Shown piece after piece: positions 8,261 through 44,570 of a stretch of 64,000 nucleotides of DNA (position 1 is the stretch's first letter; each line of letters opens with the position of its first letter). This DNA comes from Haplodiscus bocki (Eukaryota): NCBI GenBank assembly GCA_965655095.1, contig OZ296648.1, positions 110,174,001-110,238,000 of the forward strand, in the 5' to 3' direction. The position numbers were made by a program, and so were the translations under genes. Below the pieces are notes generated by a model. The model was not told the DNA's origin. It was given only the letters and a program-made list of their open reading frames with translations, and searched no databases.

Positions 8261-8304
8261 ACCACCACAACTTCGAACAGCAGATTAGGACATCAGCAGC
8301 AAAA

Positions 8305-9380
8305 ATGAATCAACATCATCCATCATCGTCATCATTCGGCGACAGAAGGCCCTATAGTGATGAGTTTACGTTGAAAATGATTTCAAACGCATCGATGAAA
8401 ATAGTACCCGAGAACAAGTTGTCGTGCTTCATAACCCTCCTTCAGACAACTTTGGCACCGTCAGGATATTGGCAGGTTGTTATCTTGGAAATATCCTGAC
8501 CGGCTTTGCTGAGCAATGTTACAAAAGGTCCGATAACTGTTTCGAAACTTGTACCACCACATGAATCATTAGCAGGTGATGATGACGACGACCTTTACCT
8601 TGCCAGAAGACTCTCAATGTGGACGCCTCGACAATTAAGCAACAAGCACAACACACAAAGACTTTACACCACTCGAGAGATGCGTCTTATCAAACATGGT
8701 TGTTACTCAACAATTGACCCAACTATGAAGAAATCTTCAAAAGTACGTTGAACAAGAGACTCAAACCAAAATGATCAACCGTTCCGTCAGCAGGAAACAA
8801 CAACAGTAAAGAGCAAGGATCACCAGTTCCTCCGCCCGCAATTTCATGGACAGTACAGAAGGCAATCTTAGAGCTTCATGTGAAGTTCGCCGGAAAAGTA
8901 GAAACTGATGGCGTGGTTGTTCAGGCATTCTAATAAGATTTGAAAAACATTCTGGGGACAACCACAATTATAGGCTGTGAGTGGAAATGGAACGCGAAAA
9001 ACATCTGCTGAAAAAGCTCAGAGTGGAAGAAGCTGTTTATCAAACTTAAAACTTTACACTGAAAAGTTTCAATCAATGGCCTGTTGATCTGAATGCTGGG
9101 AGTCAAACCACGTTTCTGTATTGCAACCTCGTTCAAAATGAAACTGTCGGTGACGTACAACCTGCAATGTTGCGATCGATTCCTCCAGATAGTCACTATT
9201 CCTCCACGTCGTCCCGCATCCATCGTGCTCATCGGAGTTTCTGAAAATGGCAGTTGAAACGTATCCGTAACTCACAAACTCAGTCAATCACACTGACTCT
9301 GGCCAAAGAAATGGGAGAAAAAATGCGAGTTCTCAGCTGTGGTCGTAAAAGCATCACATTCGCATTTGTCAATACTATGT
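8305..9380 (+). pseudogene. P1 minor capsid protein (penton), degenerate
   Basis: EFTLKMISNASMKIVPENKLSCFITLL...GYWQVVILEIS and a C-terminal LVQNETVGDVQPAMLRSIP. Confidence 0.8.
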
Positions 9381-9573
9381 TAATTTGTAAAACAGCATCA
9401 TCAACATCATCCTAAAGAGTCATTTGTAAACCAGTTGCAGTATTAAACATCCTGTTGTTGCAGTTTCTTTCGTGTTCATTTTTAGTGACAGAATCTGTTG
9501 TGCGGGTACAGCAGAAGTCCTCTCTCACTCACACAGCACCATGATTGAGGACGAAAGCGACGATCACAGCCAT

Positions 9574-10051
9574 TATGGACGTCCACTACGAGTCTTGAAT
9601 AGCAAGCTTCTATGGGAGCGGCGCCGCACATGCTCAACCATTTAGTGGTCCAGCACGACAAATGGGAGCCGGGGGTGGCTGCGGTGCTTTTGCTGTTCGC
9701 ATGCGAGGTGTGGCAATTCCGGTTGTTCGAAAGTACATATTGCTTGTAGCCAAACAAGTCGGCAAAAGTGTACTCGAAGCAATTGCTCATGTTCTCGCCG
9801 AAAGAAAAAGACCTAGTCGGGAAATGCTCACAAACAATGCCCAAAAAATAGCCATTTTCATTGCCGCATGGAGCTCTAAAATTCTCCAACACCACAACAA
9901 AGGCTTGAAAAACAACCAATGTGCGGACGGGGCATCGCGGCGGGCGGTGTCCAGGCGTACCGCTGACCTCCGGGCTGCCGGCGCCCAGTCAAGCGGCATC
10001 CGGGCTGCCGGAGAGCAGTCGGGTGGCTCCACAGATTTTAGCACAAAATAA
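9574..10051 (+). pseudogene. P1 conserved small basic protein upstream of hexon
   Basis: FSGPARQMGAGG...RMRGVAIPVVRKYILLVAKQVGK; homolog of P2 32491-32859. Confidence 0.65.
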
Positions 10052-10169
10052 CAGCTGTTGCTAGCCAGAGATAACGCAACAGAACTTCATCATCATCATC
10101 GAAGAGATTCATCATTCCACAAACAAACCCGGCAAAGAGAAGTCAGTCCGGCATTTTGTCTGAAATTCA

Positions 10170-11528
10170 AAATTCTGCTGCTGCTGATAGCGACAACAAC
10201 CTCCAAGACCAGTGAGAACCTGGCTACAACGGCGACATTTTCAGGACGCGCAATGGAATCGCAAGCCGGGTTACCCACAGTGCTTTGGATTACTTTGAAA
10301 AACTCAATGTTCTCTTCAACTAGGAAGGCTCTTACGATCAAGAAACTTTTCCACGTGTCGGCTGCCGAAGTCTGCAATTTGATTTTTTTTTGTGGCAGCG
10401 GACGCAAAAAAACTTGACTAATTTGAATCGTACTCTTTTGAGTGCCAAAGTTGGTGTCCACGAAGAAGACGGCAAAACTCGCTCGAAAGTCAATGATCAA
10501 AATGTAGTTTTTTCAAACAACACGTTTCACACTTTGTTTCCACGCGCTGAATTGCAGCTGAATGGCACCCCATTTTACACGGCAACAACTGCTGTGCATT
10601 TAGCCTTTGTTGAAACTGAACTAACGACTGACAGTGCGGGTGAAGCAAATTGGGTGAAATGCCAGCGAAATAACTACTGAGCTGAATAAAATGATAAAAC
10701 TCAAGCATTCAATGAACTATATGCCGAGTTCGATCAGAAAAAGATCAGATAAAGGAACTGTATGGACCACTTGCGCCTCTTCCGGTCGCCCAACAATACC
10801 GTACTTTGTACGTGAAGAACAGACGATGAGATGAGAGCGATCGATGGCAAAGTAGCAGTCGCCATCGAACGGGCTTCACTTTTTCAGAAAATTTGGTTGT
10901 TGCTACACATAGTGTTAAATTGTCAACAGAAGAGGCTGCAGTGAAAACTGCTGTCATCTCTCCCTATATCGAAAGCTTAGCGAAAAGTTTCATTATTGAA
11001 GCTGGATAAAATTGTTTCGTGTAGGAGAATGTGTTTGGGACCGAGCTAATCCGACGATTGACTTGGTGTAAGGTCAAAAATTCCCTATTTCGCAGCACAC
11101 CCATCAACAATTCACCGTTCGTCTACCAAAAGGTTACAAAAGAGTGTGTCAAAATTCGACGTGGACATGGCGTTCTCTAACAGGGACGACCCTAGATGCG
11201 AGCAAGAGCGTTAGGCTTCATTACAACACAATTACGGCTCATGGGTTTAACAAAACTGGGAAAGGAACAAATTTGGAAGACTCTGAAGACAACCATTTTT
11301 TCCTTGTTTGCGACCTAACATCAACCGAAGAGGCTAACAAATGCTTTACATTGTTTCCTGAGCTCAACGGGGCTGGCCTGACCACGAATGTGTTCTTCTT
11401 CAAAGCTTTTGAAAACGCAATTGAGTTCTCTCTTTGGAGAACGATTCAGTCAAGTATTTGTTGATTCTGCTCAGAGAATTTCCAAAAATTCATTGCTTGA
11501 CTTATTGGTGGTAGGTGTTGATGGTTAA
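10170..11528 (+). pseudogene. P1 major capsid protein (double jelly-roll hexon), degenerate
   Basis: THSALDYFEK, FSNNTFHTLF...LNG, AFVETELT, FFLVCDLTS...LFPELNG, GERFSQVF; multiple stops and frameshifts. Confidence 0.85.
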
Positions 11529-12020
11529 TAGCTCCCCGGCGAAGATAGCGAGAAACTGTGGCTCCACATTGCACGCTTTTCGGGGAGTTTGATCAACCGA
11601 CAATTTTCCCAAATGCAGTTGGCGGATGAAAGGCAGGAAGTCTGGCCAATATTGCGCAATGGAGCAAAAGCTGCATGCAAGTTGACAGAGTTCAAAGATT
11701 CAACTCTTCACTCACAAACCACCTTGGTCAGCACTTGTTTCTTTTGTGGCAAATACAAATTGAAGACGAGAATTAGGGAATTTTCGTGGGGGATTGCTCG
11801 GGGAGAGCTTTGTCATTTTATCGTCAGTTTCACAGCAGACTGCTGCAGCTTTATCCAAAAGAGAAAAGTGGAAGCTGTTTTGAGACAAACAAACTACCGT
11901 TGCAAAACTCTCATTCGAATCTTTGCGGTCTTTTTCTGTACTTGGTGCATTACTTGGTCAAAAAAATCTTTTAACATTTTCAAATTGAACAACAATTATA
12001 TTGCCAACCACCGAAATTGA
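11520..12020 (+). pseudogene. P1 adenain-like cysteine protease, degenerate
   Basis: GDCSGRALSFY...PLQNSHSNLCGLF (Q..C motif), same position as in P2. Confidence 0.7.
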
Positions 12021-12630
12021 TGTACGTTTTTCAACCTACTTTTTACCGGTGCTCAATTTATATACAGAATCTTTTGGTAATTGATAAAGGAATTGAAGAT
12101 TTTTCGACACATTTCTTTTTCGCTTGACGAAACATCAAGTGATAATACTCAATCAATCATCTCAAAGTTTTGCTCATTTCGATGATTGGAAAAATAAAGT
12201 GTCAATTTCGATGGTTGTAAGAAACAGAACAACCCAAGTACAAGTCAAAAAGCTAGTACTTCAGAAACGATGAGAAACACGTTAAAGTTTCCCCAGTACC
12301 TTAAGTTTCCATGAAATGCTGTGTTTTCATGTGGAGCAGCATTTTTCGGAAATAATGTAGAACAATTTTATAGAAGCGACATAGTCAATCAATTTCTTCG
12401 GATCGAATGCGTTCAGACATGGCATGTTGTTCAATAAGACGTTGATTCAGGTTGAGCAGAAAGTAATACTTTCATCAAAGTTATGAAATTCATCCGATAG
12501 TTGAGGTAGAAGCGAAATCTTGACAATGTTTGACCAGCTGTCGAAGTTGTCATGAATCTAAATCGAGCAATCGCCTTGTACTAATAATGTAGAATGAACC
12601 AGCCGACTTTGAATAGTTTAATGGCTTTCT

Positions 12631-12676
12631 AGTAGGGAGGATGAAACTGTGCGGTAACCCCCCATCCCTTACGTCT
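12631..12676 (-). repeat. P1 right TIR
   Basis: Reverse complement agacgtaagggatggggggttaccgcacagtttcatcctccctac. Confidence 0.92.
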
Positions 12677-26115: not shown

Positions 26116-26560
26116 ATGACAAGTATCTTCCGTCAAGTTCCCAGTAACTTTTCTTATGATATTTTACTGCGAAGAGGATTTTGAAGGAGACCCAATTCCA
26201 CCACCTTCAAAGATAGCAAAAACATACGCCGAAACGAATGGAATCGAATTACCAAGAACGCTGACTAAGTTCCTGAAAACGTCCGCAGCTTCGACAAACT
26301 TTGAATACACTATAGGACGTCATGCACATGGCTGTGAAGATATATGCTCAGAGATAGCGCAGCCACATATTCATTTGCTGTCCTACATCAAGAGTTTTGT
26401 TGGACCCGAAAAGTATTTTAAAAACACACTAGCAATAACCCTCGGGAATAAAAGTGGACTAAAGGAGTGTAAAGTCATGCTGTGCAACGTCACGTATCCT
26501 GAAATCCGTTTGAAGGTGGAAATGACGAAATCATCAAAACACTCTTCGAATTTATGGTGA
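26116..26560 (+). pseudogene. P2 left-end ORF with HUH-like motif, 3'-truncated by a duplication
   Basis: ATG at 26116, then a frameshift into ORF 26156-26560 containing YTIGRH...QPHIHLL. Confidence 0.55.
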
Positions 26561-26569
26561 GAGGCGGAG

Positions 26570-27605
26570 AAAATGTCATTCTGAAAAAGAGTCCCACCAA
26601 GAGAAGTCGGTCTGACATATTAGCCAAAATCAACTTTAGTTGATGGTATAATAATGACAAGAAGGACTTATCGGAGTTAGCGCGATGGCAACGAGTAACA
26701 ACAACAACAACAACAACAATGCAACAGATTGATTCAGTCCATCCACAGAGATTGCCAATCCGCTGACACATAGTGCGCTTGATTTTTTCGAGAGACCAAG
26801 TGTTTCGGTTAATTACGAAGGCTCTTTTGATCGAGAAGATTTTCCCCATGTGGGCTGCCGCGGACCCGTTGGATTTTTTTGTAACCGCAGGAAACAAGAA
26901 CTGTATCGATTTGATCCACATTTGCCTATCGCTAGAAGTGTGCCTATACCAACCTGAGGCCCAGAAAAAGTCAAACCAGATGTAGAGCTGAAATTCGCAA
27001 ACAACATGTTACATTCTTTGTTTTCAGACGTAGGGAGGTTACTGAATGGGAAATTTCTAGCAGCAACAACAACTATCATCACTTAGCATTTATTGAAACC
27101 GACTTGACCACAGACATTGCCAGTTAATTAACGCGGGCCCCCTGTCAAGGTTAGAGGTATAGAGCGAATGACAAGGCAAACGCAGAAACAAAAAGGAAGG
27201 AGCTGAACGATTTCAGAAAGGGCGAAGAATTCAATCTTGAGTTGTATGGAGCACCACACTCAAACTTTTTGGACTGTGAGCGGCTTTTGCTGCCGGGTGT
27301 TAAACTCTATTTGCGCTTTTACCGATCACCAAACAATTGCGCAGTCTAGAGCGTGGGAACGTGGGAGGCAGCAGACATCAAACGAGTTGACCAGACACCG
27401 TGAGCAGTAGTAATTGAAAGAGCCTCTTTGTTTGTCAAAAAAGTTTTCTTGTTCGAAGCTGTCAAAGTCAGCATTGAAAGAGCCTTGAAAAAAAGCACAG
27501 CAGTTTATCCATATATTGAAAGTCTAAACAAAAGTTTCATCATTCAGGCTGGACAAAATTGTTTTGTCAAGGAAAATATTTTCGAAACCGAACCTGTGCG
27601 GAGAT
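26570..27605 (+). repeat. Ectopic duplicate of the hexon 5' region (copy of 32951-33983)
   Basis: Near-identical sequence including the same stops and frameshifts. Confidence 0.95.
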
Positions 27606-27857
27606 CTCATAGGCCCCGGTGAAACCAAATTGGATCACTTCTTCAAATGCTCTAAAAAATTTCGGCTTCATGCAATTTTCCATGATGCGTTTGGGTTCAT
27701 GAGAAGTACTTACAATGTTGGTCCGGCTTACGTTTACGCACTATCCGAGAAATCATTTTTCGAAAACAGTATGCTTCTCGGACATATCACTGGCCTCACC
27801 AATTGGATTGTACTGAAACTCTACAAGAACTCGATTTACCAAGAGTTTTCGGTTTAA
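27606..27857 (+). pseudogene. P2 GPG/HD protein, putative PLA2-like, 5'-truncated
   Basis: LIGPGETKLDHFF...FRLHAIFHDAFGFM...GPAYVYA...MLLGHITG. Confidence 0.55.
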
Positions 27858-28414
27858 TCATTTCTACTTCAGCTTCCACAGATGTCAATCGTGCTTTTTT
27901 ACGTCGAGACATCATCTCCATTCCCATTTCTAATACTACAATCCTCACTGGTCGAGTTAATCCCAAAACAACTTTGGTCTGTTTAGAGCAAGCAACACTT
28001 CCCACCTCGAAAAATCGATACAAACTAAATCGAATCAATTTGGATCTGACTGAACTTCAACGGCTTCACCAAATTCTCAGTGTTTTATTATATTTGGCGG
28101 GTTATCAGTCTAGCCTTGATCAAAAAGTATGACAACACGCGTCAGCACTGACGATTTTCCTGATTCGATCAACATTGAAAACGTTATTTTTGATCAGTAA
28201 ATGAAAGAAAGATCCCCTTTCGAAGCTAACTTATGCTGTCTCAAAAGGATTACATGCAACAGAGCGTTTTTCATTTTGACATTGCACTGTTCAATCATTT
28301 TTGTCGTGGTTTCATTCAGTATTGGTTTCTTGACTTTCAGTTCTCAAACTATCATTCCGGAGTCCTAGCATTACTGTCGGCTTGCATTGGATACATCATT
28401 CCGGATCCGAAAGC

Positions 28415-29120
28415 ATGAACAAAAAAATTAATACCGATCCACATTGCTTCATATCGGTCATTGGTCCTGGTGGATGCCGAAAAACTAAGCTGGTTTTTCA
28501 ATTAATTCTCAATCAAAAGATCATATTCAGACCTTGTTTCGAGAAACTTCTGTACTTTTATAAGCATTTCCAATCTGATTACGAAACGCTTTTGTTGGGA
28601 TGTACGCAGGAAAAACTACCAATTGAGTTTCATCAAGGACTTCAATGGGCAGCAGTGGACAGGAGCGAGGCCGAGCGAGAAGCTGAGAACACTAGTAGCT
28701 ATTGACGACATGTATCAAGATACTTGTGAAGATGGAATGTTTCTCAACTTGGTTGTTGCCGGAAGACATCGAAATATACATCTGATGACTCTGAGACATA
28801 ACATCTACCAACCCGCCAAAAATTCGAAAACGATTGATCTCAACGTAACGCAGATGATTCATTTCGAAAGTCCTCGAGATGTCGAACAAATTGGAGTGTT
28901 GGGTTGACAACTGGGCGACAGAAAAGTCTTTTTAGAGGCGTATAAAAGAGCTACGCGAAAACCTTTTGGTCATTTATTCATAGATTTGGATCCAGAAACA
29001 GACCAAAAATTGAAACACTTTCCAAACTGTAACGGCTCCCAGCCTAGTGTTTTTTATATCTCTACAACTCAAACAAAAGCGATATTGAATGATTAGTCAA
29101 CGCGACTTTTATACTCTTGA
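28415..29120 (+). pseudogene. P2 A32/FtsK-like packaging ATPase
   Basis: ISVIGPGGCRKT (Walker A), LVAIDD (Walker B), GRHRNIH...HN, SPRD; frameshifts. Confidence 0.9.
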
Positions 29121-29415
29121 GCTTTTCAGTAAAACTAAACCAATTTTGAAACAATCTTTTCTTTTACACTGTCCCACTGAGCTGATTAAGCAACTGTCTG
29201 TTTAATGTTGTACATGGTGGAAATAGAATGACTGCGAACGTATTGGTGAAAAAACTGAAGAGGTATCAGTCCAATATTGAAACCCTTTGTGGAAAGAAAT
29301 GTAGGATTAGGAGAAAGCGTCAACTTCTAGCTACCAAGAATGCTATCAAGCTTCTGAAGCTCATCGAGCCTTCTGTTCTCAATTATTTGAGGAAACGACT
29401 CGACATCAAAGTAGC

Positions 29416-30076
29416 ATGAAAGAATTTGTGTTGATAACGTTGGACGAATCCACGTCTCTCCTTTCCTCCAGAAATTCAATCAACCAGGAAAAAAATTGGG
29501 TTCGGAATCAAAGGACACACTGGTACAAGGCACCAAATCAGAAGACATCAGGAACTCTCAAATTGATACGCAAGACAAGAGTAATCCCGAGACCGACGAC
29601 AAAAAACTTTGCACCCAATTATCTTGAATTCTACACTTACACAGGCGCAAAGTCCGAAAGACGCAACTCGCGATGACACGCTAGCCGACCAAACCAAAAC
29701 AATAGAGAAGACTGACAAAATAGTCATCGATTTATTGTCCTCGGGACTTTCTGGAGGCAACGTTGAGAGGGCAAGGCAAATCCTCCAGAAGGTTGATAAA
29801 TGCAGTGTCGTATCGATCGATGGTAACTCCGGTCGATTGATGCTTCAAGACCGAGATCTCGGTCTGACGATTTTTGACTTTTTGAATGACTTACAAACAA
29901 CCACAAAGAACTTGAACGAAGGAACGCTAGATGTAGTGAGACGGTTGAAACTGCCAAAATTTTTACTCGCAAACACACATGCAAAGCGCGTAGCAACAGA
30001 AGTGGCGGCGTATGACAGCAATGACAAAAAGGAAATTGGAAGTTGTTCTACAGCGAAGTGGCTGCGACTATACTGA
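29416..30076 (+). pseudogene. P2 uncharacterised conserved Polinton ORF
   Basis: MKEFVLI... and LLSSGLSGGNVERARQIL...; homolog FLLQSGITGGKIEGSR in P1 near 7975. Confidence 0.5.
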
Positions 30077-30153
30077 GCGGATGTGATACTTGTTGGAAAT
30101 TCATTTACCACAACGCATTCTTTCTTAAATAGTTGATTGTTTCGGACACAATA

Positions 30154-31341
30154 ATGAGGCACAGAAAAAGTGGTGGGAACTCAAAAGTCAAAGGGAAACT
30201 AAAACACCACTGTGGCAATTGCGCCAAGGTGTTGGGTGAAGGTTCACGTCAGAAACCTCCGATATGGTGCAACATTTGTGGTTGGGTACACTTCACCTGC
30301 AGTGGCCTTAAACGCATCGATGACTACAAAAAATACGCAGACTTTGCTCATAATGTGCGCTGACACAAAAAATTGTCAATCCCACAGCGGAGTACTTAGC
30401 CTACAGCAAAATACATACATTGTATACATCTTGCAACAATCCGGCTGCGTTTGCCGGTAGGAATGCTCTCAAGAAAACGTCGAATAGCAGTTACCGACAA
30501 GTTGACAATTATCTAAATTCCACCGAGACTTACACCAAATTTAAACAAACCAAAAACCGCTTTCCTAGATTGAAGGTTCAGAGTTTACGATTAAATGAAA
30601 TTTGGTCCATTGATTCGGCAGATATGCAAAATTTTTCTCGATACAACCATGGAATCAATTTCATTTTTGTCACGGTAGACACACTGAGCCGTTTTGTTTG
30701 GGCGTTACCATTCAAAAAAAAGACTGCCGCAGATTATAAAGATGCATTGCAGAAAAACATGGAATCACTTCGTTCAAAAAGAGTCAGTTCGAAGACAGTG
30801 ATGATGATGAAACCTATGTTTTGTCGGTCCAAGCCATATACTCTGCCGAAACCGGAGATTTGGGTGGCTAAAGGTCAAGAGTTCGCCGGCGAATTTTCTC
30901 ATTTTTGCGGAGAAATTGACATTTGTCTGTATTCAACACATAGTGAAACCAAATCGGCGTTTGCGGAAAGAAACATCCGATCTGTGAAGGCAATAATTTT
31001 CAAATTTCTGCACGAAAACAACACAGATACGTATATTGAAAATTTGCAGCAATTCGTAAATGTGATTAATTGCAGAGTGAATCGGATCACAAAGTTAGCG
31101 TTATTTGATTTCACCTCAGTGTTGCAATCAAATTCGCCAACCCAAATACAAAATGGGCCAGGAAGTGAGAACAAAACGAAAAAATGAAATATTTCATCGG
31201 GGTTACCGAATTCAGTTTACAGAGGAGGTGTTCACCATTGCCGCAGTTCAAACACGTAACCCGCCCACATACACCATAAAAGACGCCAACAATCAGTTGA
31301 CTCAGGGCAAATTTTACGAAGCCGGATTGACTCCCTTCTAA
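30154..31341 (+). pseudogene. P2 retroviral-type (rve) integrase with N-terminal PHD finger
   Basis: PHD CGNC...WCNICGWVHFTC...CS*C; integrase WSIDSADM, VTVDTLSRF, WVAKGQEF, KSAFAERNIRS, GKFYE; frameshifts. Confidence 0.9.
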
Positions 31342-31381
31342 AATTAGTTTCCAGTTTGTTCCAGAGGAAAACACAAATCAA

Positions 31382-32326
31382 ATGCCATTCAGGGAATTCA
31401 CTATAAAATTGGTATCTAACGCATCTATGACCGCATTTCCCGAAAACACATTGTCCCAGTTCACAACTCTTTTACCTCCACAACTTAACCTCTCTCGTTT
31501 TTGGGAAATGGCACTGGCCAAAATTGCATGTCCCGCGGCAATTCAAAACATAACATACGACCAGTTCAAGTATCGCGTCGCAGCGGAAAAATCACAAAAT
31601 TATGGCTGTTGCGATAGCTCGGAAAATCGAAAAAGAAAACTAAACGAAAGGCCCTACGGAAAGGTTAGAATGTACCAGCCACCAATATGATCTTTTCAGG
31701 AGACGTTTGTCGAAAACATTACAAATAACAAACCTCGTGTCTATCTTAGCGTTGATCAAATTTTGCATTCGATTTGCAAGAAAATTTTCGTAAGAACCGT
31801 AGGCGACAAGTTTCCCATCTCGTGGAAACCCGATGCCCCCTCAGAAACTCTGAAAGTTTACTATGAAGGCAACCAGCAAGAGTGTATGTTCTTGGAAACC
31901 ATATCCCAAGACTTGCAGAACGTTTTGGGCATGAAAACACTCATTGACTGCTCTGAAAACGACAAATCAACAAAAGAAGGCAACAATAGGCGAGTTATAT
32001 CAAAGACCGTAGGAAAGTTTCTAACAGACCTCAGTGGTGGCTGCAACATATTTTTTCTGTATTGCGATTTGGTGCAAAATAAAATGTTGGGAGATAGCCG
32101 TACTGCCTTGCTGAGAGCTATTCCACTGACAGAACGATCAATTACTGGGAACCATCAAAAGCAGAATTATCGGACATTTAACAGCATTCAATGGCGCCGC
32201 ATCGTAAAGTCTAGCATAGAGTCTATTTCAGTATCGCTTCGCAACGAAACTGCTCAATGGGTTCCGTTTGTCAGTCGCGGTTTAACTAACCGTACTTTAC
32301 ACTTCCGACAACGCATAGAGCAATAG
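31382..32326 (+). pseudogene. P2 minor capsid protein (penton)
   Basis: FTIKLVSNASMTAFPENTLSQFTTLLP...WEMAL; FLYCDLVQ..LGDSRTALLRAIP...TLHFR. Confidence 0.88.
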
Positions 32327-32490
32327 GCTAGAAATCACTCTATTCCATCACCATACTTGTTGTCGCCAACCAAAACGTGTCAGTACCAAGACCATCATCA
32401 TCATTATTTTGCAAAGCTAATCAATAAAACAGTCGCAAAAAAGTGTTACTGGTTACTTCTGCTACTAAATCTACTATTACTAATTCTCAA

Positions 32491-32859
32491 ATGGATGCTC
32501 ATTATGAGTTTCGAATTTGACAGGAACATCAGCCATCAACATTCCACGGACCAGTGCGACAGTTTGGCTCTGGTGGAATGGACGCGTTTGCCATGCGAAT
32601 GGGCCGAGTGGCGATGCCTTTGATAAAAAAATATGTTTTGCCCCTGGCCAAAGAGTTTGGCAGAAATTTGGTCTCTTCCTTTGTTCCCGAATTGGCGAAC
32701 ATTGTTTCTGGCAAGAAGAGAATTCTTAAAGCTGTCCGAGAAGTTTTGAAAAATTCAGCCAGCAAAAGCATCGCCAAGGCTACCGAGACGGGCCGCGTCG
32801 CCGAGGCGGGCGCCGGAGTGGTTGCCGCCAGTACCGGCGGAGCGGTGGGCGGGCGCTGA
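32491..32859 (+). pseudogene. P2 conserved small basic/amphipathic protein before hexon
   Basis: FHGPVRQFGSGG...RVAMPLIKKYVLPLAKEFGRNLV; position and motif typical of Polinton virion-associated small proteins. Confidence 0.7.
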
Positions 32860-33065
32860 AACGCTGCGCGCGGCCGGCTAGAAAACGTTCAACAAGTGTC
32901 AAAACTTCACCAGTCCATGTTGTCGTGCCCCACCACCCTTCTGCCACAAAAAAATGTCATTCTGAAAAAGAGTCCCACCAAGAGAAGTCGGTCTGACATA
33001 TTAGCCAAAATCAACTTTAGTTGATGGTATAATAATGATAAGAAGGACTTATCGGAGTTAGCACG

Positions 33066-34434
33066 ATGGCAACGAGTAACAACAACAACAACAACAATGC
33101 AACAGATTTATTCAGTCCATCCACAGAGATTGCCAATCCGCTGACACATAGTGCGCTTGATTTTTTCGAGAGACCAAGTGTTTCGGTTAATTACGAAGGC
33201 TCTTTTGATCGAGAAGATTTTCCCCATGTGGGCTGCCGCGGACCCGTTGGATTTTTTTGTAACCGCAGGAAACAAGAACTGTATCGATTTGATCCACATT
33301 TGCCTATCGCTAGAAGTGTGCCTATACCAACCTGAGGCCCAGAAAAAGTCAAACCAGATGTAGAGCTGAAATTCGCAAACAACATGTTACATTCTTTGTT
33401 TTCAGACGTAGGGAGGTTACTGAATGGGAAATTTCTAGCAGCAACAACAACTATCATCACTTAGCATTTATTGAAACCGACTTGACCACAGACATTGCCA
33501 GTTAATTAACGCGGGCCCCCTGTCAAGGTTAGAGGTATAGAGCGAATGACAAGGCAAACGCAGAAACAAAAAGGAAGGAGCTGAACGATTTCAGAAAGGG
33601 CGAAGAATTCAATCTTGAGTTGTATGGAGCACCACACTCAAACTTTTTGGACTGTGAGCGGCTTTTGCTGCCGGGTGTTAAACTCTATTTGCGCTTTTAC
33701 CGATCACCAAACAATTGCGCAGTCTAGAGCGTGGGAACGTGGGAGGCAGCAGACATCAAACGAGTTGACCAGACACCGTGAGCAGTAGTAATTGAAAGAG
33801 CCTCTTTGTTTGTCAAAAAAGTTTTCTTGTTCGAAGCTGTCAAAGTCAGCATTGAAAGAGCCTTGAAAAAAAGCACAGCAGTTTATCCATATATTGAAAG
33901 TCTAAACAAAAGTTTCATTATTCCGGCTGGAAAAAATTGTTTTGTCAAGGAAAATATTTTCGGCACCGAACCTGTGCGGAGATTAACTCTATGTATGGTC
34001 AGAAACAAGTTTTTTCGCGGATCAACAATTGAATGCAGGCCTCTCCAATACAGAAAGTTTCAATTGAGTAAAATTGAAAATCAGCAGGGCAAAGGCGTTC
34101 CAATTGCCTGAACACCTATTGACACGACCGAAAACTCGTTTGTTTTACTACATAATTTGTGCTCTTGGTTTCACAGAAGGTGGCAAAAGTATACAAATGA
34201 GTGATTTTGAAGAAAATCACTACTTTCTAGTATTCGATTTGGCTTCGTCGAGAGAAGCCGGTAAGGCCCTCACCTTATTTCCAGAGCTTACAGGAACCAG
34301 TATTACATTGAAGTTGAGCTTTACAGAAGCCCTGACTCATCCCGTAGAATTATTTTTAGTTGGTGAACGCTTCAGCCAAATCTTCATTAGACGCCACGCG
34401 CAGCAATTCCAAAAACAGTCTGATCAATGGATAA
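33066..34434 (+). pseudogene. P2 major capsid protein (hexon)
   Basis: THSALDFFERP, FANNMLHSLFS, AFIETDLT, DCERLLLPGV, YFLVFDLAS, GERFSQIF; several stops. Confidence 0.92.
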
Positions 34435-35050
34435 GATATTCCTAGCTGAAGTAGCCCAAACTTGTTGTGCTTCTTCGAGGGCAAAACTTAGCGGAGTATG
34501 GTCAGCCGACAATTTTGGATTGCTTTTCTCCTTGCCGCCACCACATCGACAAAAATTCACGAAGCAGCAAAATAAACAAGAAAAGAGCGAACACCATTAA
34601 TTTCTACATGTTCAAACTTATGATATTGTAAACACGTCGAGTGCTGGAGTACATTGGCTTCTCTTGCTTCTTTTATATGATCAACACTAACAACAACAAC
34701 AACAACAACAGAGCAACTGTCGAGAGCCAGGATGTTGCTTTTCTGTGTTTGGGATCCGTTGGGCCATCCCGTAGAACTCTATCAATTATTTGATCACTTG
34801 ATAAAAATTTAGAAAAAAAACAGAAATTAAAAAAATTCGCGACGTTAAATTACCAATCCAGTCTCCACATTCAAACACTTGTGGTCTCTATTGCCTCTAC
34901 ATCCCGCATCATTTGATTCAAAAAATTGAACAAAGATCTGTACGTTACTGCGACTTCGATTGTTTCATTTTGTCTGTTTTTCAACCACTAAAGAACTTAC
35001 AGTACATAGATTTGGTTTTATTTTGTAATGAACACTGTAATACTAACCTG
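34427..35050 (+). pseudogene. P2 adenain (peptidase C5-like) protease
   Basis: GVWSADNF, IVNTSSAGVHWL (His), WDPLG (Asp), IQSPHSNTCGLYC (Gln/Cys). Confidence 0.85.
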
Positions 35051-35629
35051 TAAATAAAATAGATAATTCAAAAAAATCTATTCTTTCGAACCTTTTCGAG
35101 CCACAGAAACAGTATTGGTTAATATCCAGTGCTGTAATATTAAAGCGTAGAAGAATTAGTGGATTCTTCAAAGTCAAAAAAGGGACAATTGATGTTTGTG
35201 TTTCAACGCTGCTGTTCATCTCCACTACTCTCATAAATATCTGTGAGGTTATCGGAATCGCAAACGTCGATGTGTCCATGTCGGCAATTTCGTCCTCAGA
35301 GCGAGGAATAAAACCGGGATCAATTGAAGCTGAAAAATATCAATACAGTCAACAACATTTAAAACTTTCCCAAAGAATCTGGGATGCAGAAGTAAAAAAA
35401 AAACAACCGTAACTGTCCATTGTAAACATTGAGTGCATTAAAAGGTCGTCCGCATCAGCGTCAAGTATTTGATTCTCGTCGGCGTCCTCATTTTCCGAAA
35501 GCACGCGATTTTCGTGACACAATGTTGGGTTAACTGAAAAAAAATCTTGATATCAGTCAGAAAAACTAAACAAAACGGCTAAGTGATTAAATAGAGGCTA
35601 TATACAGTTTTTTGTCCGCAATTTAGTTA

Positions 35630-38600
35630 CTAAACTAGACGGAACAAGTGAAACAAGCGAAAGTGATTACATTTTTGCTGGAGGCTCGAATGACCATACG
35701 CCAAAGACTTTATGCCACAGTCCAGAAAAAATCGTTTGTCATCAAAGGCACTGAGAGCAACCTTATTCACTTGAGCGACAAGTAGTTGAGTCAGCGATCT
35801 CATCTGGGTCATTTTCTTGTGAATGCTAGTGCCAGAGGATAAAACATGTTGGAACAAATCATGGTTCCCCGAGCGCTGAACACCTTCGGCACTCTGCTTG
35901 ACAACACCACTGAACTTGATACTATAAAGTTTTGATCTGAGGCAAACAACTTCTTCCAGTATAAGGCCATTAAGCTCATCTTTCATTGTCAAAGGACCTA
36001 TTTTTACTTGTCGGGTCACAAAGTTTGTGATTCTTCGGGTATTCAGACAGGTCCAGTAGATAGCAAAGTTTTTCATATCGATATACAAATGATCGGCTTC
36101 TATACGATACAGTAGTGAGTCGGTGTCCTTATACACAACAGTCAATGAATCGCCATATCAGGGTTTCACTTCAGAGTAGTGGAATTTATATAAAATGAGC
36201 TTTGACAAGTCCAAAATTGAAGCTCCAACTGCCGTAGGTTTGTTCCATACAATTGAAGTATTTGTGAAGTGCACGGATACTAGATCTTGATTGATGATGT
36301 TGAATGACTTGAAGTTGGGTTTGAAGGTGACTTCTTGGCCTGCATCTCATTCACGACGAACTTGATGACGCGTCGATTCCTGAGATTCTCCATAGTTTTC
36401 CCGAAACACGCATTGGACATTAACTTGTAGAAGTTTTTCTCGAACGCTGAGGTTGCGCCATTCCTTATTGAAGTGTCTTTAGATATGTATTTTCCTAGCC
36501 AACTGCTTTGTTTGAACTGCAACATTTTATGGAGAGCTTTTACCTGTAAACCTTGCTGAACACAAAATTGTAAATTTCGGAAATGGCAAACATAGTTCAG
36601 TTTGTCGGAAAAAGTTGCCACTAGTTTAGCAGTACTAGAAGGTTTTAAACCAAAGGACAAGGCATAGGATGACAGCCAATCCGGATTAATTTGAAGTTTT
36701 TGGGGCGCGAGGGGTAGATCGTTGTGCAAAGAATGAAGATAGGAAGGATAATGTAAGTCTATTTCAACCATATATCCAATATCACCGAAAGGGTCAGCAG
36801 AAAGAATATCATTCAGGGTGAGGTCAGATCTCCAAACGTAATCGACCAGAGGAAGCGGTTGCTCCATAGTTCCAGCATACAAAGATGTTACATCGAAGAA
36901 AGCCCCAAACAATGACTCTTCATTTGCTTTATAGTTTTGTATATACTTGTTGTTTGCGCTGAAGGTCCGAAGCGCACCTATTCCATTGATGCCACCGCGA
37001 ATAGCATTTTCACAGAACAAGAGCATATCGATGTCCGGAAGTAACTCGATTTGGACTTTCGTTGTGATCAACATCGCCTCCCAACTTAGATTGGGAGCAG
37101 AGAAAAAATGAACAGGATCAAGCTCGTAGACTGACATACAAACATTTCGAAACGTCTCAAAAATATCAGCTAGGAGATAGACATCAAGGGTCAGGTAAAT
37201 GTCGCGGTACTCTCCGAAAGTTGTACAGGAGAAAAGATGGCAAATTTCAATCGCTGTTTGGTAGTCTTTTGCAACGATATCTATTTTACCCGAGAGACTA
37301 TTTTATGGAGATAACACTTTATGGAGACAACTGCAACACTTCATGGAGAGCTTTTACCTGCAGACCTTGCTGAACACAAAATTGTAAATTCCGGAAATGG
37401 CAAACATAGTTCAGTTTGTCGGAAAAAGTTGCCACTAGTTTAGCAGTACTAGAAGGTTTTAACCCAAAGGACAAGGCATAGGATGACAGCCAATCCGGAT
37501 TAATTTGAAGTATTTGGGGCGCGCGGGGTAGATCGTTGTGCAAAGAATGAAGGTAGGAAGGATTATGTAAGTCTTTTTCAACCATATATCCAATATCACC
37601 GAAAGGGTCAGCAGAAAGAATATCATTCAGGGTGAGGTCAGATCTCCAAACGTAATCGCCCAGAGGAAGCGGTCGCTCTATAGTTCCAGCATACAAAGAT
37701 GTTACATCGAAGAAAGCCCCAAACACTGACTCTTCATTTGCTTTATAGTTTTGCATATACTTGTTGTTTGCGCTGAAGGTCCGATGCGCACCTATTCCAT
37801 TGATGCCACCGCGAATAGCATTTTCACAGAACAAGAGCATATCGATGTCCGGAAGTAACTCGATTTGGACTTTCGTTGTGATCAACATCGCCTCCCAACT
37901 TAGATTGGGAGCAGAGAAAAAATGAACAGGATCAAGCTCGTAGACTGACATACAAACATTTCGAAACGTCTCAAAAATATCAGATAGGAGGTAGACATCA
38001 AGAATCAGGTAAATGTCATGGTACTCTCCGAAAGTTGTACAGGAGAAAAGATGGTAAATTTCAATCGATGTTTGGTGGTCTTTTGCAACGATATCTAATT
38101 TACCCGAGAGACTATTTTTCCAATCATTTCCAAGAGGAGGAAATGAGGCCGAAAATTTTGTTAGACTACCAAGATAACACAAGAGGAAGGCTGATTTAAC
38201 ATTAGGTGTTGGAAAGTTTTCGTCCGACAAATAGCTGAATTTTGATCGTAAATGCTTTAGATCATCCAATTCCATCGTTTTAGCTAGGTCATCTAGTCCT
38301 TGGGACATGAACTGGAAACTGTCCAAGAATCGTGCTTCACTGTAGATAGGCTCTTTGATGTCTTGTTTTGTAGTGTACTCCGATGTTTGAATTTTTATAC
38401 TGAAAGATATAAAAGTGTCTCCGGTACGTGCTATTGCTGAAAAGACTTCATTGGGTCGTAAGTGAAGGTATTTCAGGATGTGATGCGCATCATACCTAGC
38501 CACGTTGTGGAAGAAAACAGGCAAGAACGTAACGGTCCCTGCTTTTAAATATCATTTCGAGTGAGCGAGTCCATACACCTCGCCTGTGGCATGATTATGA

Positions 38601-40226
38601 TGGACGACCGCATCACTTTCAATTTCGCTTTTGCATAAACATTTCTTCGCACTGGACCGTAGAAGCTGCTCCCGTTCTTTTGTGCCCAAGACTTTCTTTA
38701 GATCAGGATATTTTTGATTTTCTCCATCACAAAATTTCAACCATCTTCTGAGGCAATCAACCAGTTTGTTGATATTGTTCTCCCCACAATAAAAAGACTC
38801 TTTGACAACACTATTTGATCGGGAGTCAACAGGTACTGCACCATAGCTGGCTGCAAATTGATTATCGATAACGATTGTGGGCCGACCTTTGCTTTTTTGC
38901 TCGGGGACCAGCAAGGCTTCCAAATCAGCGTACACAGTAAAGGTGCAACGCTGTGTTTTCTGCCAATCGCAGAACTTTATAATTTCGTTTCCGGAGAGGG
39001 CACTTCAATTCGTAAAGGTGTATTCTCGGAACACACTCTGGTGTGATTGTTGAAATTTTTTTTTCAACACGGATTGCATGCAGTTCGCACAAAATTTCGT
39101 TCTAGTTCCCTTCATGCTCTTCTTATAGGATCCACACATTTGGTGCATGAAGTTTTAAAAGTCGGTGATGAGACAATAGTGGGACGTTTCTGCGTTAGTC
39201 AACAGCACAAGGTTGATATTCTTCCGAACATTTTCTCTCCTCTTCCTCCAATAGCACGTAGTGAGAACGGCATCTTCGCGGTAACGGAACACTGCAATGG
39301 AAAGATTATTACCGTGCTCAAATTTAGGAATGTGCTCGATTTTCATTGGCATGTGGTTCGGATCGGATATCAGTTCAGGCAGACGGCTCGAGTAATTACT
39401 TGCACGGCATCGTTTATGTGTCACTGGGAACAAGGCTGCAGCAACACAGTAGAGGAAACAAAAGTCGTCGCATACGTTTTTGATATTCAGTAAACTTTTC
39501 TTCAGTTTCTCCATTTTCGGAGGTGTTGGAAAAAATGACGAACCAGAGAGGGCTCTGCCTTTGCAAACTTTCAAGTCAACATTAATCAGCTTTTGAACTA
39601 CCCATCCAGATCCACCTGAACAAAATATACTGATTTGGCCAATTACTTGCTCAATAGTGTCAAACCAATGATCATCATCAATTAGGCCGACAACACGCAA
39701 TAGGCTAGAATTGAAGTACGGAGTAACACTTTGTTCATCGAGGGGTTTCATCAATTGCACATAAACCCACTCTCGAATGTCCCTGCCCCTGAATTTTTTC
39801 AAAAAAAAGTTTTCAGATCATCCTTGTTATCCAGCAGAAAGTCGAAAGGATCAACAAGATCTTCTGCGGGGGCTTTTCGAGAAATTTGGAAATGAGAATT
39901 CATAGCAGCGCTTTCATGAAGTAATAAAACCGGAGTTCTAAATGGACCGCTGTGGACGTCTTTATTTTCCAACTCCAGATGAAAAAATCATTATGATTCT
40001 TTAATGATGATTGCGAACCAAAAACTTGAGCGCAAATTTTACATTGGAATTTCGATTGAAAACTTGTGAAATGAGCGCAAAGGTCTGAAAAGATTGTTGT
40101 TGAGACGCGTAAAAATTTGATGACAGTGCCCGCATTCGAAGTTGCAAGGGACCGGGTTTTTTTTGTGGACCAATCGGACATGTTTTCAAAGTTGTCGTTT
40201 TGTGTCGAGTCCTTTATTACAACCAT
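35630..40226 (-). pseudogene. P2 protein-primed family B DNA polymerase with N-terminal C2H2 fingers and EndoVII-like insert
   Basis: YADLEA (ExoI), HHNHATGEVYGLAHSK (EndoVII/HNH), FFHNVARYDAH (ExoII), FLDS, DVTSLY (motif A), KLMSNACFGK (B), YKDTDS (C), GSGW, C2H2 CKICAQVFGSQSSLKNH; contains an ~0.8-kb tandem duplication. Confidence 0.95.
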
Positions 40227-43200
40227 TACAGCTCAGCTTTTTTGGAAAGATTTCTAACAGTCCCACCGAAAGGGAGATAATCGAAGAGCTGATATTGTTG
40301 CTGAACACAGTACCAGTTGGGATGGAAACATTTCTAAACCATTTTCACCTAGGGTGGAAACATGAAAGCAACGTAGATGGACTTTTAGATTTTTCTGCGT
40401 TTCCATCCCAACAAAATTCTTCGATAGTTGGGCTTTCTAAAAAACTCTCCAACAATGAACTTGCTGATACAGTAAGTATTAAAAGTTTGGGACAAATGAA
40501 TTAAGAAATGTTTTATCTTATCAAATACCTAATCACCCGCCCGTCAAGCCAAGAGACCTCTACTCATCAGGGCGATATCCCAAAAAAGCGAGAGACCAAA
40601 TTTATAACCAACACATTTCACACAAGAAGGCACAAAGTAACCAGATAGCTATCAGTACAATTGAACTTTTCCTCAACATCAATAGACTTACCATCAAAAT
40701 GTCCATCGCAAGACAGTAAAAGTCGGTGTTCAGCCGGCGATAAGTTTTATCTAACAGCAGCGAGTTATCAAAAGGGAGACCAAACTCAACTAAAGTCATT
40801 CTCAAACTAGCTTAGGCAACAAAGAGACATCTAATTTCTTTCCATAATTTTTTAAAACTTCTGCTTCATAATCGCCATGGCTGAAAACAATGAAAACTTC
40901 TCAACAATGATACTGCACGAACCGCGAGAGCTGAGGGTGCGGATGTTTGCCGGAAAAGCCCATTTGGCTTTGACGAAGAAGCATTTCGACGAATTTGGCG
41001 AAATGTCCGATACAGGCAGGCAAGATATGGTAATCAAAGGCCGACATTTCACAAAGTTGACCCAACTCAACTGGACAAGAATACTCTTCAGCTTGCTGGG
41101 GAACAACATCGCCCCCACGAGACGTCTTGGTGCCGCTGAGAGCAAACGAGGATTCAGGACTATCGAATGATTCTCGATTTCAGTAAATCATTCTCAACGA
41201 GCAAAATTAGTATTAACTTATTAATATGACCACTCATTGGAATCTGGATGTACTAACTATGTTTGTTAGATTTGCAATGGAGATGAATGTTTGCGAGACA
41301 ATTAGAAGTTTTAATTTGGATATTTGTTTCAGCTACGAATACAGATTTCCGTGTGTCAGTGTACGTATATAATTCAAATGTACACATTCGAAAGGTCGTG
41401 TACATTACACTGCGAAAATACGAGACGAACAAACAGAATGGGACATTCGAAAGAGACGGGGAGGGCATAACGATACACCACTGTGAAATAATGGAAATTG
41501 TCATGGATTATAATAGATATCTAGATCGTATCCAGCATAACCCAAGACTTTCTTCAGATCAGGATATTTTTGATTTTCTCCATCACAAAATTTCAACCAT
41601 CTTCTGAGGCAATCAACCAGTTTGTTGATATTGTTCTCACCACAATAAAAAGACTCTTTGACAACACCATTTGATCGGGAGTCAACAGGTACTGCACCAT
41701 AGCTGGCTGGAAATTGATTATCGATAACGATTGTGGGTCGACCTTTGCTTTTTTGCTCGGGGACCAGCAAGGCTTCCAAATCAACGTACACAGTAAAGGT
41801 GCAACGCTGTGTTTTCTGCCAATCGCAGAACTTTATAATTTCGTTTCCGGAGAGGGCATTTCAATTCGTAAAGGTGTATTCTCGGAACACACTCTGGTGT
41901 GATTGTTGAAATTTTTTTTTCAACACGGATTGCATGCAGTTCGCACAAAATTTCGTTCTAGTTCCCTTCATGCTCTTCTTATAGGATCCACACATTTGGT
42001 GCATGAAGTTTTAAAAGTCGGTGATGAGACAATAGTGGGACGTTTCTGCGTTAGTCAACAGCACAAGGTTGATATTCTTCCGAACATTTTCTCTCCTCTT
42101 CCTCCAATAGCACGTAGTGAGAACGGCATCTTCGCGGTAACGGAACACTGCAATGGAAAGATTATTACCGTGCTCAAATTTAGGAATGTGCTCGATTTTC
42201 ATTGGCATGTGGTTCGGATCGGATATCAGTTCAGGCAGACGGCTCGAGTAATTACTTGCACGGCATCGTTTATGTGTCACTGGGAACAAGGCTGCAGCAA
42301 CACAGTAGAGGAAACAAAAGTCGTCGCATACGTTTTTGATATTCAGTAAACTTTTCTTCAGTTTCTCCATTTTCGGAGGTGTTGGAAAAAATGACGAACC
42401 AGAGAGGGCTCTGCCTTTGCAAACTTTCAAGTCAACATTAATCAGCTTTTGAACTACCCATCCAGATCCACCTGAACAAAATATACTGATTTGGCCAATT
42501 ACTTGCTCAATAGTGTCAAACCAATGATCATCATCAATTAGGCCGACAACACGCAATAGGCTAGAATTGAAGTACGGAGTAACACTTTGTTCATCGAGGG
42601 GTTTCATCAATTGCACATAAACCCACTCTCGAATGTCCCTGCCCCTGAATTTTTTCAAAAAAAAGTTTTCAGATCATCCTTGTTATCCAGCAGAAAGTCG
42701 AAAGGATCAACAAGATCTTCTGCGGGGGCTTTGCGAGAAATTTGGAAATGAGAATTCATAGCAGCGCTTTCATGAAGTAATAAAACCGGAGTTCTAAATG
42801 GACCGCTGTGGACGTCTTTATTTTCCAACTCCAGATGAAAAAATCATTATGATTCTTTAATGATGATTGCGAACCAAAAACTTGAGCGCAAATTTTACAT
42901 TGGAATTTCGAATGAAAACTTGTGAAATGAGCGCAAAGGTCTGAAAAGATTGTTGTTGAGACGCGTAAAAATTTGATGACAGTGCCCGCATTCGAAGTTG
43001 CAAGGGACCGGGTTTTTTTTGTGGACCAATCGGACATGTTTTCAAAGTTGTCGTTTTGTGTCGAGTCCTTTATTACAACCATTACAGCTCAGCTTTTTTG
43101 GAAAGATTTCTAACAGTCCCACCGAAAGGGAGATAATCGAAGAGCTGATATTGTTGCTGAACACAGTACCAGTTGGGATGGAAACATTTCTAAACCATTT

Positions 43201-44392
43201 TCACCTAGGGTGGAAACATGAAAGCAACGTAGATGGACTTTTAGATTTTTCTGCGTTTCCATCCCAACAAAATTCTTCGATAGTTGGGCTTTCTAAAAAA
43301 CTCTCCAACAATGAACTTGCTGATACAGTAAGTATTAAAAGTTTGGGACAAATGAATTAAGAAATGTTTTATCTTATCAAATACCTAATCACCCGCCCGT
43401 CAAGCCAAGAGACCTCTACTCATCAGGGCGATATCCCAAAAAAGCGAGAGACCAAATTTATAACCAACACATTTCACACAAGAAGGCACAAAGTAACCAG
43501 ATAGCTATCAGTACAATTGAACTTTTCCTCAACATCAATAGACTTACCATCAAAATGTCCATCGCAAGACAGTAAAAGTCGGTGTTCAGCCGGCGATAAG
43601 TTTTATCTAACAGCAGCGAGTTATCAAAAGGGAGACCAAACTCAACTAAAGTCATTCCCAAACTAGCTTAGGCAACAAAGAGACATCTAATTTCTTTCCA
43701 TAATTTTTTAAAACTTCTGCTTCATAATCGCCATGGCTGAAAACAATGAAAACTTCTCAACGATACTGCACGAAGCGCGAGAGCTGAGGGTGCGGATGTT
43801 TGCCGGAAAAGCCCATTTGGCTTTGACGAAGAAGCATTTCGACGAATTTGGCGAAATGTCGGATACAGGCAGGCAAGATATGGTAATCAAAGGCCGACAT
43901 TTCACAAAGTTGACCCAACTCAACTGGACAAGAATACTCTTCAGCTTGCTGGGGAACAACATCGCCCCACGAGACGTCTTGGTGCCGCTGAGAGCAAACG
44001 AGGATTCAGGACTATCGAATGATTCTCGATTTCAGTAAATCATTCTCAACGAGCAAAATTAGTATTAACTTATTAATATGACCACTCATTGGAATCTGGA
44101 TGTACTAACTATGTTTGTTAGATTTGCAATGGAGATGAATGTTTGCGAGACAATTAGAAGTTTTAATTTGGATATTTGTTTCAGCTACGAATACAGATTT
44201 CCGTGTGTCAGTGTACGTATATAATTCAAATGTACACATTCGAAAGGCCGTGTACATTACACTGCGAAAATACGAGACGAACAAACAGAATGGGACATTC
44301 GAAAGAGACGGGGAGGGCATAACGATACACCACTGTGAAATAAGGGAAATTTTCATGGATTATAATAGATATCTAGATCGTATCCAGCATAA
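38685..44392. repeat. Tandem duplication, ~2856-bp unit (38685-41540 and 41541-44392)
   Basis: Duplicated ORFs in the track; junction ...cagcataa|cccaagact at 41540/41541. Confidence 0.95.
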
Positions 44393-44570
44393 CCAACCGC
44401 AACAAGGTTCTTCAAGTTCAACTAAACAACTATCAAAAATTGCATGCAAGAGGGAAGCGGCTGAAGAGAACATCACCGATGAAGAAGAAGCGCCTCTGTC
44501 TCGCTTCAAGTCAGCGAAACGAGCATTCGCAAAGTCAGAGACAGAAGTCGTCTCTCTTGGACGACAGTGA
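43733..44570 (+). pseudogene. P2 tandem PC4-like ssDNA-binding ORFs (partial copy at 40877-41540)
   Basis: LRVRMFAGKAHLAL...DEFGEM..GR and FRVSVYVY...VYITLRKY...GITI resemble the PC4 fold pattern. Confidence 0.45.

Follow-up and report, generated by a model that had tools for sequence, protein, structure and literature searches.

Two decayed Polintons, P2 and P1, lie in the 64,000-nt stretch of Haplodiscus bocki DNA analyzed here (the window), and in each of them an HUH-like gene, present as a broken copy, comes first after the left terminal repeat. A sequence-only reading had proposed that this gene encodes a captured HUH nuclease domain or else an unrelated metal-binding fold, which raises the question of whether its protein cuts DNA, binds it, or derives from HUH proteins at all. 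The HUH/Rep-like fold and the conservation of the histidines support the HUH part of the first proposal; the designation as a nuclease does not stand as worded, the YxxK signature being absent. The gene is a real, conserved and apparently undescribed accessory gene of a Polinton lineage, and the interpretation of its product likely shifts from nuclease to binder.

The Host Elements

Both elements display the AG...CT-ended terminal inverted repeats and the 6-bp target duplication that are the hallmark of Polintons/Mavericks, the duplication being perfect in P2 and preserved at 5/6 positions in P1 (Table 1). According to the available text of PMC8097293, the AGTAGT end motif is the commonest among vertebrate Mavericks. 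A Pfam search of P2 revealed two PF03175 matches to pPolB above the cut-off (E 3e-14 and 1e-10, at 36280-38551); an ATPase match (Pox_A32, E 0.004) and an integrase match (rve, E 0.009) are weak and fall below it. P1 consists of remnants collinear with P2, in which no pPolB was seen. With both ends and a target duplication, it is a deleted or non-autonomous element. In two sequencing runs of organism A, contig depth is in the tens outside the element but in the hundreds or thousands within it; because of this jump, a closely related family is taken to be highly repeated in that organism.

The polymerase region of P2 contains near-identical tandem duplications (36515-38118, 790 nt, 96.6%; 38685-44394, 2858 nt, 99.3%). 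Found in addition to the 1036-nt copy at 26570, these duplications are either recent rearrangements or assembly artefacts. Two adjacent small ORFs are found by the right end of the element (43712-44038 and 44139-44570), with second copies at 40856-41170 and 41287-41607. By motif, the first pair is presumed to resemble PC4-like single-strand binding domains, an identity that Pfam and PDB searches left unconfirmed.

Directly outside the right end of P2 there is an imperfect palindrome of ~290 nt (75%; 45636-45923), and a diverged tandem repeat of ~155 nt lies upstream of the element (24310-24966). The window also holds a SUZ12 homologue with a VEFS box and a zinc domain in one uninterrupted 679-codon frame (57181-59220, minus strand), a Tc5/pogo-type DDE_1 transposase in an open 440-codon frame (53566-54888, plus strand), a frameshifted LINE with endonuclease and reverse transcriptase (46421-49341, minus strand), and an assembly gap of 180 N (20799-20978).

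The HUH-Like Gene in P2 and P1

In P2, the frame of the gene changes near 26150 and near 26538, and its 3' half is replaced by a copy of 32951-33983. Judging by motif, the latter is the probable major capsid gene region; it has no Pfam match. The remaining P2 gene is 84% identical over residues 13-142 to P0001, an intact relative of 282 aa. Contigs from other sequencing runs carry different letters at both breaks, and one of them runs past 26572 with other sequence; the lesions thus seem confined to the P2 copy. The order of terminal sequence and HUH-like gene found in P2 and P1 is repeated in an independent contig (L001).

The P1 gene matches the relative P0043 (34% identity, E 3e-34, tblastn), and the family HMM recognizes it in two frames; a direct match between the P1 and P2 genes was not obtained. 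The earlier proposal that one gene stands at the left end of both Polintons is thus borne out, and the motifs it described in P2 are present (EYTIGRH, 26303-26323; PHIHLL, 26363-26380; VTYPE, 26489-26503). Its P1 string was stitched from more than one frame: the letters of PHCH do exist at 5131-5142, in a frame different from that of QYVSRQH. The homologous frame of P1 reads VCSTLPLNHHNNVVY versus ICQTLPSNHHHTLLF in P0043; it has the form C-x6-H-H-N, in which Asn takes the place of the second His in this decayed copy, and the statement that PHxH persists in P1 is therefore incorrect. Because PHxH occurs four times in the six frames of the 64-kb window, the off-frame PHCH is regarded as a coincidence or an echo of the neighboring frame, not as conservation. 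A conserved Cys six residues before the HxH is absent from the earlier description.

Codon comparison indicates that the gene is conserved under purifying selection, with a dN/dS of 0.13 between P2 and contig L002 over 76 in-frame codons. The dN/dS of 0.82 between L001 and P2 (dS 0.075) is read as recent decay. A value of 0.37 for L001 and L002 was dropped, since that comparison takes in out-of-frame sequence.

Table 1. Positions in the window of the two Polintons, their HUH-like genes and associated features; fractions refer to the 23 relatives described in the text.
Feature	Position	Strand	Details
Polinton P1 (decayed)	4376..12676		8.3 kb; target duplication CATACC/CATACT (5 of 6 positions)
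P1 HUH-like gene, full-length, broken	4902..~5730	+	Frameshifts and stops; tblastn with P0043, P0047, P0053, P0036
P1 metal-site region	5085..5156	+	His 5085-5087; Cys 5127-5129; HxH position 5148-5156 is H-H-N
P1 VSYPE	5267..5281	+	tblastn alignment
P1 C-terminal H...CxCxxC	5562..5621	+	Putative second zinc site
Polinton P2 (decayed)	25683..45360		Ends 5'-AGTAGT...ACTACT-3'; perfect 6-bp target duplication CCCGTG
P2 left terminal inverted repeat	25683..25789		Pairs with 45252-45360; self-blastn 88% over 113 nt
Left-terminal non-coding stretch conserved between P1 and P2	25683..25928		76% over 245 nt
P2 HUH-like gene, 5' half	26116..26572	+	Family residues 1 to ~153; ATG at 26116, 433 nt inside left end; 3' half missing
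P2 His70, end of strand β2	26321..26323	+	Equivalent to RepB His39 in hhalign register; 21/23
P2 Cys78, six residues N-terminal to HxH	26345..26347	+	Putative fourth metal ligand; 22/23
P2 HxH (His85-x-His87), start of strand β3	26366..26374	+	Equivalent to RepB His55/His57; 23/23 and 21/23
P2 (S/T)YPE...E, start of helix α3	26492..26521	+	Tyr128 clade-specific
Copy of 32951-33983	26570..27605	+	1036 bp; 98.9% identity; replaces 3' half of P2 gene

Family and Conservation

Searches for relatives returned 202 proteins, none of them named and many representing fragments of decayed copies. The family is so far narrow and comprises only unnamed ENA, Logan and JGI records. Its intact members are two-domain proteins of ~250-335 aa (typically ~280 aa). 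Pfam and PHROGs searches with the HUH-like protein gave no meaningful family, PDB sequence searches gave nothing significant, and scans of the IMG/VR viral contigs found no relatives. A metagenome scan produced 297 pattern matches that led to three loci, of which L001 and L002 are real and short and L003 is marginal. Among the sequencing runs listed as containing the gene, none was an RNA run; rows with a small share were left out of account for habitat.

No SF3 helicase fusion was detected among the intact relatives, which end at ~250-335 aa, in searches that could miss distant fusions. When phmmer was run with no length limit, one of 82 matches was longer, a protein of 511 aa with five short repeats of residues 16-68. 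A search for longer proteins found five, of 271-283 aa.

Conservation was counted in 23 chosen near full-length relatives that are 17-73% identical to P0001. The core motif of the intact relatives is H-x(7-16)-C-x6-HxH, and its four metal-site residues are nearly invariant (Table 1), in agreement with the expectation that both His of the HxH are conserved across the family. In a larger alignment of 81 rows (78 of the 121 sequences passing the coverage filter among 158, plus 3), the counts over the rows spanning each site were His70 in 39/45, Cys78 in 40/45, His85 in 41/47 and His87 in 36/47. The residue between the two His, Ile in P2, is F/L/Y/C in 10/23 relatives, Gln in 11/23 and His in 2/23. 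The C-terminal domain carries a second cluster, H...CxCxxC (His230, 21/23; Cys245, 23/23; Cys247, 21/23; Cys250, 23/23). A clade of nine members (support 95/97), with pairwise identities of 31-91%, takes in relatives of both P1 and P2.

Predicted Fold

The AlphaFold model of P0001, computed with 81 sequences, has an overall pLDDT of 75, with values mostly between 80 and 95 in the N-domain and of 51-69 in a loop at residues ~21-40. Its strands span residues 12-21, 63-70, 85-92, 116-126 and 145-147; the helices cover 48-60, 98-112 and 129-139. The predicted topology over the N-terminal ~160 residues, β1-α-β2-β3-α-β4-α-β5, corresponds to the order of Rep-type HUH domains.

A VIA structure search of 48,161 chains with this model placed Rep-type domains in all of the top five positions, with Z values of 6.4-6.7: pMV158 RepB (Z 6.7, rmsd 3.2, 106 aligned), AAV5 Rep (Z 6.7, rmsd 4.5, 136 aligned), the RepB OBD (Z 6.5, rmsd 3.4, 108 aligned), BPV (papillomavirus) E1 (Z 6.4, rmsd 3.8, 106 aligned) and SV40 LT (Z 6.4, rmsd 3.8, 104 aligned). 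Rep, NS1, E1 and LT domains account for 16 of the best 50 rows, with generic ferredoxin/ACT folds mixed in from rank 6 (Z 6.3) and all Z values below 8; on realignment, the AAV2 OBD reached Z 7.2 (rmsd 4.3, 123 aligned). Foldseek against the PDB returned RepB at rank 1 with E 3.1e-3, no match falling below 0.001. BFVD contributed 10 matches with E<=0.001, and most of those that have a name are NS and Rep proteins of parvoviruses. The five-stranded Rep-like fold looked for on the basis of the earlier reading thus has moderate support from the model and the structure searches.

Two sequence-based approaches point in the same direction. ESM features of the relative P0036 led to PF01719 Rep_OBD at 0.89, which serves as a lead only. 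A profile of 12 RepB-family proteins mapped to 3dkx, a target picked only after the fold search, was aligned with hhalign, which puts H70/H85/H87 on H39/H55/H57 of the RepB family at low probabilities (1.5-15%); the N-domain score was 25.2, and none of 60 column shuffles scored above 18.8. A separate ESM lead, from the truncated P2 ORF to clusters of capsid fragments (0.94; recognition 1859, under the 2300 mark), was set aside because the full-length relative and the three fold searches point to Rep.

From these data, HUH ancestry of the protein is highly probable. The alternative is that an unrelated ferredoxin-like metal-binding fold has converged on H...HxH, as would be consistent with the Z values, with the ACT, S6 and TiaS folds that follow closely behind, with the lack of Pfam, PHROG or PDB sequence matches, and with a Gln or His at the U position in 13/23 relatives. 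Such convergence is nonetheless very unlikely: Rep-type domains come out on top in three structure searches as well as in a language-model search, the His positions are in register with the end of β2 and the start of β3 of RepB, and the Rep matches extend through helix α3 and strand β5.

The C-terminal domain folded alone reached a pLDDT of 61.6 and a best Z of 3.4, and its model found no BFVD match under E 0.37; these values do not speak for a new fold. Prediction of a homodimer with zinc gave a score of 0.00, with the alignment unused and the fold of the partner uncertain. The BFVD matches also include proteins labeled NS2, from an ambidensovirus (rank 1) and from IHHNV (rank 12). These model-based matches hint at a possible Rep-like fold in densoviral NS2 as well, of which a literature search found no published account. 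In the RefSeq record of plasmid pE194 (L004:1259-1859), Rep is annotated as two overlapping pieces.

The Metal Site and the Missing Tyrosine

The metal ligands of RepB, in the available text of PMC5030251, are His39, Asp42, His55 and His57, and its nucleophile is Tyr99, in helix α3 and in the motif UxxYUxK. The Polinton family has both His of motif II on strand β3, and the third ligand, His70, lies at the end of β2 in register with RepB. Because the C-x6-HxH spacing is fixed, the alignment suggests that Cys78 is the fourth ligand of a His3Cys zinc site.

Motif III, by contrast, is absent. Not one of the 23 relatives has a Tyr at positions 130-138, where the UxxYUxK or YxxK tyrosine of helix α3 would lie, and no Tyr column anywhere exceeds 12/23, so the YxxK anticipated after the HUH was not found. 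A relaxase-class catalytic Tyr (or His) preceding the His triad is likewise missing, the conserved His all lying within two clusters. The candidate nucleophile positions 132-136 hold C/F/T/A/S, K/R/N, or E/Q. The equivalent of the RepB Tyr is position 132 in the global hhalign alignment and position 136 by the hydrophobic pattern L/F133-x-x-E/Q136-U137, where Glu is found in 12 relatives, Gln in 10 and Lys in one. Because motif III was tested and is lacking, the protein is not classed as an HUH endonuclease. Neither does it show the loss of all three HUH motifs of the E1/LT type, as the motif II His are kept. By its fold and its metal motif, the protein is HUH-derived; its mode of action is probably that of an origin-binding domain.

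A non-canonical nuclease is a somewhat unlikely description of this family. We also judge it unlikely that the protein is an HUH enzyme of changed chemistry, with a cysteine-gated His3 site and a displaced Tyr or water, that nicks or holds the single-stranded ends of the element and so provides the missing step in releasing the integrated Polinton for protein-primed replication. In one form of such an enzyme, Tyr128 of the clade would attack a phosphate held by the His3 metal and nick terminal single strands in excision or end processing, the other clades being inactivated. Eight residues are indeed invariant in the nine clade members (Arg68, His70, Cys78, His85, Tyr128, Pro129, Glu130 and Glu136), Tyr128 is found in 45/58 rows of the larger, clade-heavy alignment, and position 132, to which hhalign assigns the RepB catalytic Tyr, is one helical turn away. 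But Tyr128, in the (S/T)YPE sequence at the start of helix α3, occurs in 9/23 relatives and is invariant only in the clade of the window; the other 14/23 have a helix-capping residue there (Ser, Thr, Asp, Glu or Asn), with the His/Cys set unchanged. In addition, no motif III Lys/His follows Tyr128 in register, the helix pattern UxxYU (available text of PMC5030251) maps the Tyr site further off, to ~134-136, and the 6-bp duplication at Polinton ends is typical of integrase, not of HUH transposition. We consider a nickase of this kind quite unlikely.

Alternatively, a nuclease could dispense with tyrosine, the His3 metal activating water (or another nucleophile) and Cys78 acting as a removable fourth ligand by analogy with the cysteine switch. 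This would accord with the retention of the metal triad across the whole family, with the Glu or Gln at position 136 in 22/23, and with the title of PDB entry 3wrn (MVM NS1), which names unusual Zn coordination in the active site. A literature search found no published account of the MVM NS1 zinc site. Such an activity is highly improbable, given that Gln136 (10/23) cannot serve as a general base, that a zinc site with four protein ligands is normally closed, and that no spare conserved His, Ser or Asp lies near the site in the alignment.

The Left-Terminal DNA

The DNA of the HUH-like gene aligns between P1 and P2 no better than shuffles, unlike the adjoining 245 nt of left-terminal non-coding sequence. 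Because this stretch retains its identity while the gene DNA does not, we infer that it contains a constrained cis-element. As judged from sequence, it is a candidate origin/promoter region and a candidate target of the protein. Within it, a 21-nt stretch is identical in P1 (4521-4541), P2 (25829-25849) and L001; it falls outside the portion that the right repeat also has and is a candidate promoter or binding site. A repeat search of both left ends revealed no iteron array and no strong hairpin.

Proposed Function

We tentatively prefer a reading in which the product is an HUH-derived, probably non-nicking two-zinc DNA-binding protein that acts on the ends or the promoter of the element. The gene would go back to a Rep encoded by a rolling-circle virus or plasmid; tyrosine transesterification would have been lost in a protein-primed replicon with no need for it. 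The His3+Cys site would hold a structural or DNA-phosphate-binding zinc, and the domain would act in the manner of papillomavirus E1 and SV40 LT, whose origin-binding domains do not cut. Its position as the first gene suggests early expression from a terminal promoter. The protein may then bind the conserved terminal DNA of its own element, as a double strand or as a displaced single strand, and this binding may help the terminal protein/pPolB to initiate or may regulate terminal transcription.

A Rep domain without transesterification is the simplest reading because protein priming needs no nick and the 6-bp duplication denotes integrase-type insertion. The HUH domains of papilloma- and polyomaviruses provide a precedent for a switch from an enzymatic to a structural role (PMC6668415, available text). 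Several findings count against the binder: the modest Z values, the low hhalign probabilities and the divergent ESM lead of the truncated P2 ORF; the invariance of Tyr128, Glu136 and Arg68 in the clade of the window; and the lack of an iteron-like repeat array in the left end. The retention of the His triad across 17-25% identity, where the E1/LT domains lost all three motifs (PMC6668415), also goes beyond the obvious needs of a purely structural role.

The same domain could instead be a scaffold that binds proteins or host chromatin, as an early host-modulating or transcription factor, and not the ends of the element. The inward position of the gene at the left end resembles that of adenoviral early regulators, and the C-terminal zinc cluster and the termini devoid of a repeat array are compatible with such a role. 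Adintoviruses, moreover, carry zinc-motif accessory genes (PMC8502044, available text). The conserved residues cluster on the DNA-binding face of Rep (H70, H85 and H87, with R68 in the clade), and the adjoining terminal DNA is unusually conserved; both observations argue against a host-directed scaffold, which we regard as distinctly doubtful.

Implications

HUH nicking and protein priming are alternative ways of starting replication, of which bidnaviruses and mriyaviruses each kept one. A Polinton lineage with pPolB and integrase that keeps an HUH-derived gene under purifying selection is a combination that we did not find described. If the protein is a binder, it would be a candidate origin-recognition factor of Polintons and an independent transition of the E1/large-T type at an intermediate stage, in which the metal site survives but the tyrosine is gone. 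If it is a cutter, it would represent new HUH chemistry and bear on how Polintons leave the chromosome. In either case, the gene offers a small, soluble protein and a defined candidate substrate of 245 nt for direct testing.

A search of openly accessible papers found no description of an HUH-like gene in pPolB Polintons; the unnamed Adintoc families in the supplements of PMC8502044, or Repbase, could include the protein without labeling it as HUH. The term "HUH" does not occur in the available text of a structural survey of Polinton replication proteins (PMC11161782), nor does "endonuclease" in that of the adintovirus paper (PMC8502044). PMC11296320 and PMC11071296 mention HUH only in other contexts in their available text.

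Comparison with Known Systems

The best or joint-best structural match is pMV158 RepB (Rep_2/Rep_OBD, PF01719), which is also ranked first by Foldseek. Both proteins have a His at the end of β2, the HUH on β3 and a fourth ligand on the β2-β3 loop (Asp42 in RepB; PMC5030251, available text), and both stand alone, with a helical C-terminal domain and no helicase. The Polinton protein differs in lacking the UxxYUxK tyrosine and in its loop ligand, a Cys six residues before the HxH in place of an Asp three residues after the first His. It also has an H...CxCxxC cluster in the C-terminal domain, and its gene resides in a eukaryotic pPolB element.

Likeness to parvoviral Rep/NS1 (AAV2/5 Rep, MVM NS1, B19 NS1) extends up to the Z of 7.2 obtained with AAV2. 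By analogy, the setting is comparable, as parvoviral Rep/NS1 proteins work on the termini of linear genomes in animals. In contrast to them, the Polinton system has no motif III Tyr, no SF3 helicase and no strong terminal hairpin at the left end. The origin-binding domains of papillomavirus E1 and polyomavirus large T (Z 6.0-6.4) likewise combine the HUH fold with the absence of a catalytic Tyr, and this analogy makes them the likely functional counterpart, binding without cutting. In E1 and LT, none of the three motifs survives and the domain is joined to an SF3 helicase (PMC6668415, available text), whereas the Polinton family keeps the His triad and stands alone.

Mriyaviruses and some Zora/VC218 polinton-like viruses also have an HUH gene in a mid-sized double-jelly-roll DNA virus (available text of PMC11253617; bioRxiv 10.64898/2026.06.19.733378). 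The mriyavirus proteins have intact motifs II and III and are predicted to be active, in viruses with no DNA polymerase (PMC11253617, available text); the Polinton, by contrast, has pPolB and integrase and has lost motif III. In bidnaviruses, parvoviral and Polinton genes meet as they do here. According to the available text of PMC4061559, the acquisition of pPolB cost bidnaviruses their HUH domain but not the helicase, whereas the Polinton keeps an HUH-like domain without the helicase.
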